Positions 7,870 through 47,522 of a DNA stretch of 64,000 bases are shown here, one piece after another. The notes beneath the pieces were generated by a model, which saw nothing but the letters and a program-made list of their open reading frames with translations, was not told the origin of the DNA and did not search any database. The number at the start of each line of letters is the position of its first letter. Positions within the stretch are counted from its first letter, which is position 1. The stretch lies in NCBI GenBank assembly GCA_021162745.1, contig JAGGYC010000113.1, positions 11,476 through 75,475 on the forward strand, written 5' to 3'. The translations under genes and the position numbers were made by a program. The DNA comes from Desulfuromonas sp. Its GTDB lineage: Bacteria; Desulfobacterota; Desulfuromonadia; Desulfuromonadales; Desulfuromonadaceae.

Positions 7870-9789
7870 ATGGGTAAAGTCATTGGAATCGATTTAGGAA
7901 CCACCAACTCTTGTGTCTCAGTTATGGAAGCCGGCGAGCCGACTGTTATTGCTAATGCCGAGGGATCACGCACTACCCCGTCAATGGTGGCTTTTGCTGA
8001 AAACGGCGAACGACTGGTTGGCCAACAGGCCAAGCGCCAAGCAGTCACCAACCCCGAAAACACTCTGTTTGCCATCAAGCGTCTCATCGGTCGCAAGTTT
8101 GACTCCGAGGCGGTAAAAAGAGATATCGAGATCAGCCCGTTCAATATTGTCAAGGCCGACAACGGCGATGCCTGGGTCGAAGCACGCGGCAAGCAGTACA
8201 GTGCGCCGGAGATCTCGGCTATGGTGCTGCAGAAGATGAAGCAGGCGGCCAGCGACTATCTGGGCGAGGATGTGACCGAAGCGGTTATTACCGTTCCTGC
8301 TTATTTCAACGATTCCCAGCGTCAAGCGACCAAGGATGCCGGTAAGATTGCCGGTCTTGAGGTGTTGCGTATCATCAACGAGCCGACGGCTGCTGCACTG
8401 GCTTACGGCATGGATAAAGAAGTCGAAGAGAAGATTGCTGTCTTTGACCTCGGCGGCGGTACGTTTGATGTGTCGATTCTTGAACTTGGCGATGGTGTGT
8501 TTGAGGTCAAATCCACCAACGGTGATACGTTTCTTGGTGGTGAGGACTTTGATCAACGTATCATTGATTACATTGCCGATGAGTTCAACAAAGAGCAGGG
8601 CATTGATCTGCGTGGCGACAAAATGGCTCTACAGCGGCTGAAAGAAGCGGCGGAAAAGGCCAAGTGTGAGTTGTCGACCTCCATGGAGACCGACATCAAC
8701 CTGCCATTCATCACTGCTGACCAAACCGGTCCCAAGCACATGAATCTGAAACTGAGCCGTGCCAAGCTGGAGAGTATTTGTGGCGATCTGTTGAGCAAGC
8801 TCGAAGCACCGTGCCGCACCGCTCTTAAGGATGCCGGCTTGTCCGCTTCCGATATCGACGAAGTGATCCTGGTTGGTGGTATGATTCGTATGCCTGCCGT
8901 TCAGGAGAAGGTTCAAGCGATCTTCGGCAAAGCGCCGAACAAGGGTGTTAACCCTGATGAGGTTGTTTCCATCGGTGCTGCCATTCAGGGTGGCGTTCTC
9001 AAAGGCGACGTTAAAGACGTGTTGTTGCTGGACGTTACGCCACTCTCTCTGGGGATCGAAACCCTCGGTGGCGTGTTGACCAAACTGATCGAAAAGAACA
9101 CCACCATCCCGTGCAAGAAGAGCCAGATCTTCTCCACTGCCGCTGACAATCAGCCGGCGGTATCGGTTCACGTTCTGCAAGGTGAGCGCGAGATGGCTAC
9201 GGACAACAAGACCATTGGTCGTTTCGAGTTGACCGACATTCCACCGGCACCACGCGGTGTGCCTCAGGTTGAGGTTACCTTTGACCTCGATGCCAACGGC
9301 ATCATTAGTGTTTCAGCTAAGGATATGGGTACCGGCAAAGAGCAGTCGATCAAGATTACCGCCTCCTCCGGTCTGAGCGATGACGAGATCGAAAAGATGG
9401 TCAAGGACGCTGAGCTGCACTCTGACGAGGACAAGAAGAAGCGTGAGCTGATCGAAGCTCGTAACCAGGCCGATAGCCTGGTGTACAGTACAGAGAAGTC
9501 TCTCAAGGATCATGGGGACAAAGTCGATGCTGAAACCAAGACCAACATCGAAGCCGCTCTAGAAGAGTTGAAGAAGGTGATGGAGGGTGATGACGCTGAA
9601 GCGATAAACAAGGCGGTTGAAGCCTTGGCTCAAGCGTCACACAAACTGGCCGAGGCGATGTACTCCCAAGCCCAGCAGGAAGCTGGTGCCGAGGGTAGTG
9701 AGGGCGCTGGCCCGGAAGCGGCTGCTGAAGGTGACGACGATGTTGTCGATGCTGAGTTCGAAGAAGTGGACGACGATAAAAAGAAATAA
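7870..9789 (+). CDS. dnaK: Chaperone DnaK (Hsp70)
   Basis: [37 protein letters not shown]; 639 aa. Confidence 0.99.
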
Positions 9790-36972: not shown

Positions 36973-37154
36973 TCAAGTTCGCGGGTTTCGTCCCGCAGCC
37001 GACGTACTTTTTTGAAGGGCCACAAAAAAGTAAGCAAAAAATGGCCTTGAAAATCAAGGCAACTAACGGTGGAGCTAACGGTTTCAGTGTGCGGACTACG
37101 TATCATCCCGAGCTGCGAAGGCGGGCCTGATCCCTTGCGGCCCGCTTAACTTGA
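36973..37154. repeat. MITE-like intergenic element (about 180 bp)
   Basis: Imperfect terminal inverted repeats TCAAGTT-CGCGGG vs TCAAGTTAAGCGGG (reverse complement of the right end); internal hairpins, including ACTTTTTTG...CAAAAAAGT. Confidence 0.5.
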
Positions 37155-41983: not shown

Positions 41984-43483
41984 ATGCGTTGTCGAACACG
42001 CTTGGCTCAGGTGGTGGGCTTGGTGCTGATGCTTTTGTTGTCTTCCGCAGTGCTGGCGGCCAACTGGCCGCAGTTGGAGAAGCGGCTGCAACAGTGGCCG
42101 GGGGAAAAAGAGGTGACGTTGCCGGCGGGGGTCGATCCCTTTGATGACCCGCTGTACGCTTCTGTGGTTGATCTGTTGTTGGAACAGGGTTTTGCCATTT
42201 TGCCGACTGCCGGTGAGGCAAAGGGCGGTCTGGTGCTGAACTTCCGTACCACAAGTCGCGGTCAGATGCTGTTGCTCAAACGGGCTAGCGATGGTGCACT
42301 GCTGGCTATGGAAAAACTGGAGACGGTTACGGTACCGCAAATGAATCCGTTGACCAGTGGGCCGATCACTGAACCGATCGTATTGCGTACGGCACCACGT
42401 CACTCTTCTGCGCAGTTGATCGTTCCGACTCCGGCTATGACGACGGCCTCTGTCCTTTCGGTGCAGCATCCGGTCCAACCCTCGGTTGCCGGTGAAGTGT
42501 TGTTTGAACTCAATGGTGCGCCGCTACAAGTTGTGGTGTGGTCGACAGCCGACGAAGGGCTTGATCTGTACCTGATGTATGATGGTTATGTGCAACGTAT
42601 GCACAGTAATGGTCAAAGCCTGCAGCTGCTTGAACGCTTTACGCCGCCGCTTTCAGTCTCACGGGCATTGCATCTGGAGATCGGCGATTTGAACAGCGAC
42701 GGTCAACCGGAGCTGGCAGCGGTGTGGGCTGAAGATGTGCGCGGCGTGGCCGATGGCACCAATTCGCTGCTGCATAGCTGGGTGTTGACGGTTTCCAGTC
42801 CGGGAATCAAAGCGGTTAGTGATGATCTTGGCGGTTATATTGATTTGGCCGCAGGCCAGGGCCGCCTGCAAAAGCGTGAAGAGTATCGCTCCTTTGCTCC
42901 AGAAGTCTATGCCCTGTCCATGGATAACGGCAGTGTTGCCGTCAGTGGGCAGCCGATTGCGATCGGAACACGGTTGTTGTTCGATCAGCTTGAATGGCCG
43001 GACAGCCAGAGGGCGCTGGTGTGGAACGATGAACAGCGCCTGATGCTGGTCGCTACTTCAGCTAAAACCCGGATTCCGGGATCGACACTGTTGACTGATT
43101 TTGGCCAATACCGCGGTCCGGTGGTGTCTATCCCTCTGGAGGAGCCGGAGTATCGCAGTGGTTTTTCAGCAAATGATCAAGTGTTAGCTCGTGAAGTTTC
43201 ACTGGCGCGGCGTATGGTACGTCGTCAGGATGATGTATTTACGCTGGTGCGTGGACGTTCGGAGGGGATGGCTCTGATTGGGCGTGCTCATGGCGCGGAT
43301 CGCCTGGTGGCGATCAGTAGTGTCGGAAACAGCTTGCAGGCCAGCTATCCGTTTGCAGCCATCGAAGCCTTTATTGTTGATTTTGGCCTCTATGGTGCGC
43401 AGGTGCCGCAGGCGGCAGTGCTCCTCAACGAGAAGGCCGACGGCAGTGGTCGCAGTTACTTGCGGTTGCAGAAGCAGCTGTAG
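41984..43483 (+). CDS. Secreted hypothetical protein with one FG-GAP/VCBS-like motif
   Basis: Signal peptide (AVLA-ANW), GDLNSDGQPELA motif, beta-rich C-terminal half; AGGAGG upstream. Confidence 0.6.
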   Translation: MRCRTRLAQVVGLVLMLLLSSAVLAANWPQLEKRLQQWPGEKEVTLPAGVDPFDDPLYASVVDLLLEQGFAILPTAGEAKGGLVLNFRTTSRGQMLLLKRASDGALLAMEKLETVTVPQMNPLTSGPITEPIVLRTAPRHSSAQLIVPTPAMTTASVLSVQHPVQPSVAGEVLFELNGAPLQVVVWSTADEGLDLYLMYDGYVQRMHSNGQSLQLLERFTPPLSVSRALHLEIGDLNSDGQPELAAVWAEDVRGVADGTNSLLHSWVLTVSSPGIKAVSDDLGGYIDLAAGQGRLQKREEYRSFAPEVYALSMDNGSVAVSGQPIAIGTRLLFDQLEWPDSQRALVWNDEQRLMLVATSAKTRIPGSTLLTDFGQYRGPVVSIPLEEPEYRSGFSANDQVLAREVSLARRMVRRQDDVFTLVRGRSEGMALIGRAHGADRLVAISSVGNSLQASYPFAAIEAFIVDFGLYGAQVPQAAVLLNEKADGSGRSYLRLQKQL

Positions 43484-43530
43484 CTTCGGCTTAGTAACCG
43501 TGTTTGAATTGTGTTGATAGCAGGTCTAAG

Positions 43531-43570
43531 CAAACGGGGGATGGTCACATGACCATCCCCCGTTTGTATT
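43531..43570 (+). repeat. 40-bp palindromic repeat, left copy
   Basis: CAAACGGGGGATGGTCA-CA-TGACCATCCCCCGTTTG-TATT; exact reverse complement of 45460-45499. Confidence 0.95.
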
Positions 43571-43645
43571 TGAACAAAAGGAAAGGGGGCAGGGTTGTCA
43601 AAATACAAGGCTTAACAAGCGGACGTATTTCCCTTCCTTTCTCAT

Positions 43646-44908
43646 TCACAGTTCAAGTGAAAATGGATTTAGGAACTGACGCCCCCAAAGCAGTTTTTTG
43701 TCAATCTCATTGAACTTAGCCTCCCTGCAAACCTCGTCCCAGTGTTGTTCAATGACCATTTTCAGATGCGCAAAAATAGCTCGGGCTTCATCGCTGGAAA
43801 TTAAAAAATGATGCGCGGTTTCGAGGCAGATTTTAAGCTGGCTGAGATTATTGTTGTTTGAAATCAGCATCGCCTGGGAAGCTTCGTTTCCGGTTCGTCC
43901 CTGTGGACAGATGTCGTAGGCTGGCGTAAGTGTCAACTTTTTTCCATCCCAAAAAGCTGCATGGTTTCGTGCGTGATCATCCGTATTGCCGCATAAAATA
44001 TTGAAAACAAGACGTGTAAACAGTTCTTTGAGATTTTTTTTTGGATCGGTAAAACGGTGACGGATGATTTCTGCTAAATCTTCGTAGCTGGCATAACGCG
44101 CCATCATGTCATCAAGGCCTAAAAGGGTAAGTGCTGAAACCATGCACTTTCGCGACCAGCCTTGATTTGAACGTTCGCGATCAAAACGTTTAACCAGCAA
44201 TACGTCTCTACCTGCTGTTCTTGTCAATTTGATCGGTGCAACATCCAGTCCGGCCAAGGCGGCCAGCCTCATGGCGATAAACTCGGCTTTAACGATACTG
44301 TAAAGATCGCTGTTGGAAGAAAACTTGGCCACATATTTTATGCCCTGATCTTCAATCAATGCCTTTGGGCGTGCTCCGCCGATGGAGCTGCCATGAAAAA
44401 GTGCCAGATCCAACTCTGGTGTGAGAGGAACACCTTGTTCAACGCGTTCTGCGGAGTCAAGGAGTTCTGTCAAACTTACATTGTCGGCTGAACGGGGTAT
44501 GTATTCAGATGGCGAATGCTGAAAGTCCAGAGCACCGATACGGTCGGAGCCTGACTCCAGAAAATAGGTTAACTCGTCTAGATCGGCGGTGTCCGTATCT
44601 GTGCCCTTCAGCCCAAGCTTTCTATTGATGATGACCCGCCGTCCCCAAGCATCGGGCGCGGCATCACGAATACAGCCGGGCATATTCAACCCTTGAGGTA
44701 GGGGTAATCTTCCTGCTTTCAGGGGCAACTCCGGTTCGTAAATGGAAATTGCCGGATTTATGTTACTGGTTCGTTCAAGGTAGCTTTTGCCGTAATTGAA
44801 CAGAAGATAACCGTTGTCTGCCTCAAGCTTCCCGGCAACAACTGGCTTGGTGTCGCCGGGCAACCATATCCAGACATAAGCTTCCTTGTTGTTGTGACTA
44901 GAAGTCAT
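43646..44908 (-). CDS. hipA: HipA-family kinase toxin (with HipA N-terminal domain)
   Basis: SIGGARPKA, AKFS, AEFIAM, LVKRFDR, NTDDHARNH, PAYDI. Confidence 0.9.
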   Translation of the reverse strand: MTSSHNNKEAYVWIWLPGDTKPVVAGKLEADNGYLLFNYGKSYLERTSNINPAISIYEPELPLKAGRLPLPQGLNMPGCIRDAAPDAWGRRVIINRKLGLKGTDTDTADLDELTYFLESGSDRIGALDFQHSPSEYIPRSADNVSLTELLDSAERVEQGVPLTPELDLALFHGSSIGGARPKALIEDQGIKYVAKFSSNSDLYSIVKAEFIAMRLAALAGLDVAPIKLTRTAGRDVLLVKRFDRERSNQGWSRKCMVSALTLLGLDDMMARYASYEDLAEIIRHRFTDPKKNLKELFTRLVFNILCGNTDDHARNHAAFWDGKKLTLTPAYDICPQGRTGNEASQAMLISNNNNLSQLKICLETAHHFLISSDEARAIFAHLKMVIEQHWDEVCREAKFNEIDKKLLWGRQFLNPFSLEL

Positions 44909-45236
44909 CGTCTATTACTTTGGTTGATTTGCGTATAGATTTTGGTAACAGAGCCAGCTTTTCATCGGTGTGACGCAGGTGGGTGGCCAATGTTGTTTCG
45001 TCGGCATCGAATAATTTTACTCCGACGATAGTCGCAACTTCAAACACGGCTCCGATTTCACATTTCAGGTCACCTTTTTCAATTCGTTGTAATAGTCCCC
45101 TGGATATTCCGGCGCGATTGGCCACTTCTTGGGCAGTTAGCTTACGTTCCTTGCGCGCGGCGCGAATGAGTCCTCCGAGGAGGGTAACCGCAGTGCGACT
45201 AAAGCGGGAATATGTGCGCGTAATAGATTTCGGCAT
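44898..45236 (-). CDS. XRE-family HTH protein, HipB-like antitoxin
   Basis: IRAARKERKLTAQEVANRAGISRGLLQRIEKG; upstream of and overlapping hipA by 11 bp. Confidence 0.85.
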   Translation of the reverse strand: MPKSITRTYSRFSRTAVTLLGGLIRAARKERKLTAQEVANRAGISRGLLQRIEKGDLKCEIGAVFEVATIVGVKLFDADETTLATHLRHTDEKLALLPKSIRKSTKVIDDDF

Positions 45237-45271
45237 TGGCTGTTTGATCCATATGTAGAGCGTAAGGTGCC

Positions 45272-45321
45272 ATTGTGAGCTTTGTGTGGATCACAATAGG
45301 TGTAATTTGTGGAGTTGTCAA
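45272..45321 (-). promoter_or_regulatory. Sigma70 promoter and operator-like inverted repeat of the TA operon
   Basis: Minus strand TTGACA (45321-45316), 17 bp, TATTGT (45298-45293); inverted repeat ATTGTGA-N12-TCACAAT (45272-45297) overlaps the -10. Confidence 0.65.
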
Positions 45322-45459
45322 GAGAGTGGGGAATGAATGTGTTTTATAAATCCATCAAGGTGGCTGTATACGAATACGTGCTGTAGCAAGAAGTTGGTTG
45401 ACTGAGGGTGGACTTTCGTAGGTTTGAGTTTTGCCGGGTGCCTTGCCGCTTTCAGTTTG

Positions 45460-45499
45460 AATACAAACGGGGGATGGTCATGTGACCATCCCCCGTTTG
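45460..45499 (-). repeat. 40-bp palindromic repeat, right copy (inverted); may also act as the tkt terminator
   Basis: Reverse complement is identical to 43531-43570; locally forms a 21-bp perfect stem (45460-45503). Confidence 0.95.
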
Positions 45500-45533
45500 T
45501 ATTTATAGCGTTATTTATGTGTTGCTTAAGCGC

Positions 45534-47522
45534 TTATTTCGCCAACAGCTGTTGGGCTACTTTCAAAACATTGTCGGCGGTGAAGCCGAAGTGCTCCATC
45601 AGCTGACCACCGGGGGCGCTGGCACCGAAGCCGGTCATGCCGATGACGTCGCCGTCGAGGCCGGTGTAGCGTTCCCAACCGAAGGTGGACGCTGCTTCCA
45701 CCGCCAGCCGCTTGCGGCAGCTGTTGGGGAATACCTGCTCCTTGTAGGCCGCATCCTGTTGCTCAAACAGCTCCCAGCATGGCATGGAGACGACGCGGGT
45801 ACCGACACCCTGCTGTTGCAGTTGCTCGCGGGCGGCGAGGGCATGTTGTACCTCGGAACCACTGGCCATCAGAATCAGTTGCAGTTCACCTTGCTCTTTA
45901 GCCAGCACGTAAGCGCCTTGTTGCAGCCCTTCGGCAGCACCAAACATCGTGCGGTCGAGGGTCGGCAGATTTTGGCGGGTAAAGATCAGTGCGGTGGGGC
46001 CACTACGGGTCAGCAGGGCTGCTTTCCAGGCCTGGGCGGTCTCGTTGGCGTCACAGGGACGGATAACATTGAGGTTTGGTACACTGCGCATGCCGGTCAA
46101 TTGCTCAACGGGCTGATGGGTGGGACCATCCTCGCCGACACCGATGGAATCGTGGGTGAAGACGTAGATGGGTGCGATCCCCATCAATGCAGCCATCCGC
46201 ATCGGCGGGCGCATGTAGTCGGAGAAGATCATGAAGGTGGCACCGAACGGCAGCAGCCCTTGAGTATGGCACAGGCCGTTGAGGATGGAACCCATGGCGT
46301 GTTCACGAATACCGAAGTGGATGTTGCGGTCAGCCGCTTCGGCGCTGAACGCCCCTTCGCCATTGAGGTGGGTATTATTGGACGGTGCCAGGTCGGCACT
46401 GCCACCCATCATCATCGGCAGCCCTGCGGCGAGGGTGTTGAGTACTTGACCGCTGGAGGAGCGAGTCGCCATGGAACCACCGGTCTCAAAGGTGGGCAGC
46501 AGGGCATCGACAGTTTCAGCCGTCAGGGGCTTGTCGGCACACCAGTCGGCCAGGGCGCTGTTGGTCGCTGCTTTGGCATCGCATTGGCCTTGCCACTGTT
46601 GCTCCAGTTCGGCACCGCGCTGTTTTAGCCCGGCCATGTGACTGTACACCGCCTCGGGAACCACGAAACTCTGCTCGGGGTCGAAACCCAGTGCCTGCTT
46701 GGTCAGCTTTAGCTCGTCGCCACCTAGCGGTGCACCGTGAGCGGCTGCGGTGCCCTGCTTGTTTGGGGAGCCTTGACCGATGTTGGTACGGGTGATGATC
46801 ATCGATGGGCGCGGATCACGCTTGGCGCGTTCGATGGCGGCATCGACTTCGGCCAGGTTCTCGCCGGTAACACGCTCGACGTGCCAGCCGTAAGAGAGGT
46901 AACGGGTGGCCACCTCTTCACTGAACGCCAGCGAGGTATCGCCTTCGATGGTGATTTTGTTGTCGAGGTAGAGGTAGACCAGATTGCCCAGTTGCAGATG
47001 GCCGGCCAGGGAGGCGGCCTCGGCGGAAACCCCTTCCATCAGGTCGCCGTCGGAGCAGATGGCATAGGTGGTGTAATCAAACAGTTCCTGATCCAGCTTG
47101 TCTGCCAGGAAGCGGGCGCCCATGGCCATGCCGACGCCAACAGCGATACCTTGACCCAGCGGGCCGGTGGTGGTTTCAACACCTTGAGTATGGCCAAATT
47201 CGGGGTGACCAGGCGTTTTGCTGTCGAACTGACGGAAATTTTTCAGATCGTCGAGGCTGAGATCGTAGCCGCTCAGATGCAGGGTGCTGTAGAGCAGCAT
47301 CGAGGCGTGGCCGCAGGAAAGGATAAAGCGGTCGCGACCGGGCCAGTCCGGGTTGGCCGGGTTGTGGCGCATGTGCTTGGTATAGAGCAGGTAAGCCAGA
47401 GGAGCCCCTTCCATCGGGGTGCCGGGGTGACCGGAATTGGCTTGTTGAACCGCATCCGCAGACAGCAGGCGAATGGTATCAATGGTTTTTTGGGCGAGAA
47501 CAGGGTCGATCTGTGCGTACAT
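45534..47522 (-). CDS. tkt: Transketolase
   Basis: [27 protein letters not shown]-like [30 protein letters not shown]. Confidence 0.98.

Follow-up and report, generated by a model that had tools for sequence, protein, structure and literature searches.

A hipBA toxin-antitoxin operon between two copies of a terminator-like hairpin in the hyp-tkt spacer of a Desulfuromonas genome

Toxin-antitoxin (TA) modules are known from plastic intergenic loci of bacterial chromosomes, where a bare TA operon without a mobility gene occupies a short spacer between housekeeping genes, as is the case for ccdO157 between folA and apaH of Escherichia coli and for parDE or mazEF between relA and mazG (PMC7167474, PMC3184786). 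The contents of these loci vary by strain and species, and a palindromic element is found in the spacer (PMC7167474, PMC3184786); at folA-apaH, repetitive extragenic palindromic (REP) sequences also occur. A review describes such insertion loci as plastic and the mechanism of integration as unknown (PMC7167474). Here, we describe a comparable locus in the genome of a Desulfuromonas sp. (assembly GCA_021162745.1, called G000 below), situated in a stretch of 64,000 nt of contig JAGGYC010000113.1 that we refer to as the window and to which all positions without a contig label refer. Other G labels stand for comparison genomes, C labels for contigs and L labels for loci. Between the convergent genes hyp, an open reading frame (ORF), and tkt, encoding transketolase, the window contains a hipBA operon that is bracketed by two hairpins in inverted orientation, and this spacer, too, differs in content between genomes, since it harbors hipBA, phd-parE, a group II intron or nothing.

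A resident hairpin of the hyp-tkt spacer

The two hairpins that bracket the operon are the following.

43531 to 43571, no strand assigned: left hairpin copy with a perfect stem of 17 bp around CA and with TATTT right after it; probable terminator of hyp (plus strand) and hipA (minus strand)
45460 to 45503, no strand assigned: right hairpin copy, a perfect 21-bp stem with centre TG; probably bidirectional and terminating tkt on the minus strand

Positions 43531-43570 and 45460-45499 are exact reverse complements over 40 of 40 nt, as a preliminary description of this DNA had reported along with the 17-bp stems and the CA and TG loops. Its remark that the similarity runs further inward also held, in that the inverted match extends to 45 nt at 96% identity (pair I1). 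The left copy (43531-43566) reads CAAACGGGGGATGGTCA-CA-TGACCATCCCCCGTTTG, and the right copy (45464-45499) has an identical stem around the centre TG, which here lengthens to 21 bp (45460-45503). The tails of the hairpins are GUUUGUAUUU and GUUUGUAUUC. As RNA, the left copy folds with -34.9 kcal/mol on the plus and -32.2 kcal/mol on the minus strand (z about -6.5 to -6.9), and the right copy with -41.1 and -39.0 kcal/mol (z -8.5 and -9.4), which for both copies and both strands is far better than shuffled sequence. None of the shuffles of the window matched the pattern of the hairpin pair.

With respect to copy number, the genome assembly (2.9 Mb in 163 contigs, metagenome-assembled, 97% complete, 51.6% GC) contains two copies of the hairpin, which are exactly those in the window. 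In a genome-wide scan, the hipBA pair was the sole locus-specific pair of identical hairpins flanking genes. One further pair, on C87, has its members 170 nt apart with no gene between them and stems from a small hairpin family, and all remaining pairs belong to abundant repeat families. A search of public genome contigs with the 26-nt hairpin core gave a single match, in a metagenome-assembled genome of the Caldilineaceae, which we judge to be due to chance, and metagenome contigs gave zero matches. Hence, the same ends around other cargo, which the preliminary description had proposed to look for, were seen neither in the genome nor in the public contig collections. An Rfam search of the locus and of the repeat copies returned sub-threshold chance matches only.

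The origin of the hairpin is revealed by related genomes. Eight congeners (G008, G007, G003, G001, G011, G009, G002 and G010) have a single homologous hairpin between the convergent hyp and tkt genes, and the distance between it and the stop codon or codons next to it is 23-31 nt. It consists of an A-run, a GC stem and a T-run, the classical form of a bidirectional terminator, as in G008, where it reads AAAAAAGGGGATGACCA-AA-TGGTCATCCCCTTTTTT; aligned to the window, the G008 hairpin GGGGATGACCA-AA-TGGTCATCCCC corresponds to GGGGGATGGTCA-CA-TGACCATCCCCC. Four of these genomes (G008, G001, G011 and G010) display the empty site, with the lone hairpin in a hyp-tkt spacer of 85-86 nt, and the flank of the right copy on the tkt side shares TGTGTTGCT with the empty site of G008. 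Conversely, we inspected 39 homologous hipBA loci (10 plus 29) for flanking hairpins or repeats of the kind seen in the window, and none of them had any.

Because only two copies exist, because the congeners carry one hairpin, because the 39 hipBA loci lack such ends and because the REP sequences of this genome are different, we regard the hairpins as a resident terminator that was duplicated when hipBA landed. In this reading, which we consider probable as a whole, both hairpins are the host's own bidirectional intrinsic terminator closing hyp and tkt, as predicted from position and orthology, and a foreign hipBA operon inserted once at this terminator with duplication of the palindrome. The same observations speak against the suggestion of the preliminary description that a non-autonomous mobile cassette ends in these hairpins. 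The alternative that it offered, terminator copies around an independent insertion, came closer, except that it had envisaged a genome-wide family, of which the two copies give no sign. Nor do we see the pattern that had been set against the cassette from the outset, namely an abundant terminator-like repeat of which both copies persist at sites free of the module: the hairpin does not form a genome-wide family, and where relatives lack hipBA at the site, a single copy is kept instead of two.

Insertions of several kinds mark the spacer as a hot spot. In G007, the antitoxin gene phd and a truncated copy of parE lie between hyp and the hairpin. A closer description of this locus (L024, G007:C24:16300-18000) is that a Phd/YefM gene is followed by a shortened ParE gene running into the terminator hairpin, which makes it a decayed TA module. 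In G009, the orthologous hairpin is immediately followed by a group II intron without an ORF (L029, G009:C1:846200-848100). The intron is about 640 nt long and matches the Rfam families RF02001, RF01998 and RF00029 (D1-D4 and domain V/VI), all above the gathering threshold, and its position fits the habit of class C introns to target terminators. The spacer of G003 contains a GGDEF/EAL gene, and G004 and G012 have two differing hairpins about 330 nt apart.

The hipBA cargo and its surroundings

The remaining features of the locus, from left to right, are the following.

41984 to 43483, plus strand: hyp, the upstream flank, convergent with tkt; an ORF of which one homologue is named FG-GAP repeat protein
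43646 to 44908, minus strand: hipA, intact, 420 aa, a Ser/Thr kinase toxin of the HipA family
44898 to 45236, minus strand: hipB, a 112-aa antitoxin with an Xre-type helix-turn-helix (HTH), matching HTH_31 and HTH_3, with an 11-nt overlap with hipA
45293 to 45321, minus strand: promoter-like site of hipBA, sigma-70-like (TTGACA-17-TATTGT, 10/12 consensus positions), inside the bracket
45356 to 45428, plus strand: 73-nt fragment of a MITE (miniature inverted-repeat transposable element), the truncated left part of an element of about 165 nt with terminal inverted repeats (TIRs), 78% identical to C54:33382-33454
45534 to 47522, minus strand: tkt, transketolase, the downstream flank, convergent with hyp; Transketolase_N (E=2.7e-129) and further domains

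That the bracket encloses a HipBA-like TA module without a transposase, as the preliminary description had it, is borne out by the domain searches. HipA matches HipA_C (PF07804, E=3e-50) over the full profile and the N-terminal HipA domain (PF13657, E=5.7e-6), and it has the overlapping HTH gene as its partner. Its catalytic loop (DxHxxN), GNTDDHARNH, aligns with GNEDMHLKNF of the solved structure of HipT(Lp) (8ezr), and the PAYD motif, which contains the Mg-binding Asp, aligns with PAYD of the same protein. From its family, HipA would be a kinase that halts translation by phosphorylating an aminoacyl-tRNA synthetase, while HipB presumably neutralises HipA and represses the operon.

HipA shares 77-81% identity with HipA proteins whose names place them in several distant lineages of bacteria, a pattern that speaks for horizontal spread and fits frequent transfer. 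HipB shows 79-82% identity to the HipB proteins paired with the closest HipA homologues, and the pairing of hipB with hipA recurs in the homologous loci. At the nucleotide level, homology across these loci, including L040, is confined to coding sequence and to a stretch of about 63 nt that lies upstream of hipB. The interior of the bracket has a GC content of 47.2% as compared to 56.6% for hyp, 60.4% for tkt and 51.6% for the genome, which agrees with the earlier observation that the interior is more AT-rich than tkt. Judged from sequence, hipBA is well supported as an inserted, AT-richer TA module that was probably acquired horizontally and without a transposase of its own. Of the flanking genes, hyp gave no match in a Pfam search and has homologues in Desulfuromonas-like genomes only, where its 3′ end likewise adjoins tkt.

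The statement that the bracket holds only the TA genes and their promoter was right with respect to genes and promoter, but it overlooked the MITE fragment. The copy in the window leaves the family match after GGTTTGAG. The family is about 165 nt long with TIRs AGGAGGCTGTCGGAC...GTCCGACAGCCTCCT, and no fewer than 22 copies were counted in the genome, among them C54:33384-33548, C62:53976-54141 and C68:3820-3978; the family is also present in the congeners G005-G009, G002 and G003, and in G032. Since full copies end in TA, an IS630/mariner type is suggested. One of these copies lies in the second hipBA locus of G000 (L044, C68:2991-4553), which is adjoined by a RelE/ParE-like pair: here, the MITE forms an in-frame insertion of 159 nt (C68:3820-3978) in the hipA frame, between the N-terminal and the kinase domain.

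Some further repeats were noted in the genome. A second abundant family of about 280 nt occurs at about 70 sites genome-wide (reference C54:34313-34597). It has hairpins such as CACACTTTCTTTG-N8-CAAAGAAAGTGTG, and a partial copy lies in the window at about 36974-37052 (C36:48449-48527). Low-copy local repeats that might mark small islands are a 44-nt direct repeat with copies 4.6 kb apart (C133:4205-4248 and 8823-8866), a 45-nt direct repeat with copies 7 kb apart (C13:1926-1970 and 9031-9075) and a 34-nt inverted repeat around a Y1_Tnp gene (C161:567-600 and 2694-2727).

Duplication of the palindrome and rival explanations

If hipBA inserted at a resident terminator, the events may be pictured as follows. 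A foreign hipBA operon would have landed once in the short hyp-tkt spacer, bringing its own promoter, and the MITE fragment would have arrived with it or later. The landing would have duplicated the palindrome of ~40 nt and left one copy on either side, such that a strong terminator would still close each of hyp, tkt and hipA, with the TA operon shielded from read-through on both sides. As to the route of duplication, we infer, tentatively and at somewhat less than even odds, an insertion at breaks that were staggered across the palindrome. If, for example, an extruded cruciform were nicked at its base and the gaps were filled in, a target duplication of the size of the palindrome would result. 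The 2-nt loop would then have been flipped subsequently, be it through a template switch inside the palindrome or through pairing of the copies in inverted register and gene conversion between them. Inverted loops in hairpins with long stems have been described for the non-coding DNA of chloroplasts, and bacterial quasipalindromes can have their spacer inverted through cross-fork template switching.

The need for such a flip depends on whether the two copies are regarded as direct or as inverted repeats. They had been described as truly inverted on account of their loops, and the loop bases do favor inversion. The argument is weak nonetheless, because a direct-repeat alignment of 41 nt (43531-43571 against 45464-45504) also fits, with two mismatches that both fall in the 2-nt loop, such that only these two bases discriminate. 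Moreover, in a common orientation the orthologous loop is AA in G008 and TT in G007 and G003, so the loop of the hyp-tkt hairpin evidently flips in evolution. The flanks do not help to decide either: in tests against shuffles, no significant similarity past the palindrome was detected between the flanks of the two copies in direct or inverted register. TATT stands to the right of both copies and AATA to the left of the right copy because the palindrome is extended there.

Several points weigh against an insertion at the resident terminator as we propose it. A plain target duplication predicts no inversion of the loop dinucleotides (CA and TG), so an extra step is required, and the AATA that extends the right stem is missing from the left copy. 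A search with the hyp protein found no closer strain (best identity 66%), and hence no recent empty site. The case is a single one, and it comes from a metagenome-assembled genome. Furthermore, a simple terminator scan called neither hairpin. The scan was silent because of its rules (a loop of 3-8 nt, and five T in the eight positions after the stem); in these hairpins, some of the U-tract is base-paired within the stem. Terminator function is therefore deduced from position and orthology.

A different history, unlikely in our view, would be a Campbell-type integration, in which a hipBA circle bearing a hairpin recombined with the resident terminator, by homologous or site-specific recombination, and left direct repeats resembling attL and attR. 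The loop difference would then be explained by a hairpin variant of the donor together with a crossover to the right of the loop. This possibility draws on the fact that the 41-nt direct alignment equals the inverted one in quality, and on the inner flanks, which when joined give GTTTGAATA-hairpin-TATTTGAAC, a longer and near-perfect palindrome that is the same as pair I1 (45 nt, 96%). There also is a precedent in the same family. In L049 (G283:C339:1-2662), a hipBA module with 74% HipA identity lies between a 5′-truncated ssb fragment and an intact ssb, and the ssb portions form a direct repeat of 208 nt with 85% identity, on a contig of just 2.7 kb. This is the classical signature of a single crossover, and the islet thus looks like a Campbell-type insertion flanked by a target-type repeat. 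In another homologous locus (L039), hipBA adjoins a gene with a weak Phage_integrase match. However, for the locus in the window the donor would have to carry a hairpin identical to the species-specific tkt terminator, which is circular reasoning except in the case of a sibling strain as the donor. An integrase is found neither within nor beside the cargo, and in the homologous loci that were compared no conservation was detected beyond the coding regions and the short stretch upstream of hipB. A tRNA or tmRNA gene that could have served as an att site was not found in the window.

The idea that the hairpins are the TIRs of a non-autonomous cassette, moved in trans by an HUH enzyme (a REP-associated tyrosine transposase, RAYT, or an IS200-type enzyme) or by some other recombinase, is largely refuted and now appears very improbable. 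Its appeal lay in the identical inverted palindromes around a transposase-free cargo, and the genome does encode seven proteins of the Y1_Tnp family. It also has, on C19, a RAYT gene between inverted REPs with reverse-complementary loops, that is, in the same flip/flop geometry. However, the two copies of the hairpin stand against at least 31 copies of the genome's REP (GTAG-GTCGGGTTA-N8-TAACCCGAC), and the hairpin lacks the GTAG tetranucleotide. A cassette with such ends also does not account for the empty sites of the relatives, which still hold the hairpin, nor for the absence of the ends from the homologous hipBA loci and from public contigs.

Just as improbable is a programmed invertible segment, in which the palindromes would be the crossover sites of an invertase acting in trans. 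The hix and gix sites of such systems are near-palindromes with a 2-bp core in inverted orientation, and the hipBA hairpins, with CA on the left, TG on the right and arms of 17 bp, resemble them, though in form only; ordinary homologous recombination between the 40-bp inverted repeats could flip the segment as well. Yet the 97%-complete assembly has no match to the Resolvase family of serine recombinases (PF00239), no recombinase is found in or adjoining the segment, and the single-copy orthologues of the hairpin are plain terminators. An inversion would have no obvious output, because the segment contains the promoter together with both genes. Least credible is an assembly artefact, that is, a chimeric join or a misoriented segment at the palindromic repeat, for even though a 40-nt inverted repeat in an assembly of 163 contigs may leave the inner orientation unresolved at short k-mer sizes, all four junctions have unique flanks no farther than an ordinary read length from the 36-44 nt repeat, the contig measures about 110 kb, and such an error could flip the segment but not create the insertion.

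Other candidates were tried and set aside. The 8-nt repeat GTTTGAAT (43503-43510 and 45455-45462) is not significant as a target duplication, and it would leave the hairpin copy inside the cargo unexplained. The core GTTRRRY/RYYYAAC of an integron attC site was not seen by eye at the hairpin borders, and a protelomerase-type site was rejected because the centre of the hairpin is asymmetric.

Significance and relation to known systems

The junction footprint of the hipBA insertion is unusual and possibly informative. What makes the locus instructive is the combination of very clean junctions, an empty site in related species, duplication limits that coincide with the palindromic terminator, and mobile elements of other kinds that occupy this spot in sister species. 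One could go further and suppose a structure-directed route, by which TA cassettes without mobility genes become trapped where a terminator is extruded as a cruciform or hairpin, with duplication of the palindrome in the process. On present evidence we rate this as a long shot. If true, it would be one answer to the question how "naked" TA modules enter chromosomes, and the hyp-tkt spacer would be a hot spot owing to its palindrome. Should the pattern recur elsewhere, it would suggest that terminators serve as landing pads and would explain the transcriptional insulation of inserted TA operons.

Among the systems to which the locus can be compared, the dif modules of Acinetobacter come to mind. 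These are likewise small cargos without a recombinase, often a TA pair, between inverted near-palindromic sites (pdif, served by XerC/XerD). The layout of pdif sites is 11-6-11, and they occur on plasmids in many copies. Unlike these, the hipBA site has a 2-nt spacer, is present in only two copies and is most probably the resident terminator. The sole dif-like site found in the genome, TCGCATAA-GATACA-TTATGTAAA on C116 (minus strand, near 2361), is unrelated to the hairpin.

In a REPtron, identical inverted hairpins with reverse-complementary loops likewise stand around a gene, and G000 harbors a genuine one at C19:10537-11143, in which the RAYT (Y1 HUH) gene lies between inverted REPs. The REPs of this genome contain GTAG, exist in at least 31 copies and surround the HUH enzyme that belongs to them, whereas the hipBA hairpin has none of these properties. 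A 14-nt match to the hairpin arm (CATCCCCCGTTTGT), about 30 nt upstream of the left C19 REP, was judged to be due to chance.

Islets with att-like direct target repeats, as produced by Campbell integration, resemble the locus in that cargo is flanked by a target-derived repeat, and the hipBA/ssb islet of G283 is the parallel case. In contrast to such islets, no integrase is present here, the repeat coincides exactly with the palindromic terminator, and one copy has its loop flipped relative to the other. Group IIC introns, for their part, use the same target structure, as they insert just after intrinsic terminators, and the intron of G009 follows the orthologous terminator in this manner. Duplication of the hairpin is not known from such introns, nor is protein cargo of the hipBA kind.

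Taken alone, the locus is a well-documented curiosity and not a new kind of element. The known class to which it belongs is that of the chromosomal TA islet in a plastic intergenic locus, and it differs from the plastic TA loci named at the outset, for which a limited literature survey gave no such description, in that the resident palindrome is present twice here and flanks the cargo.

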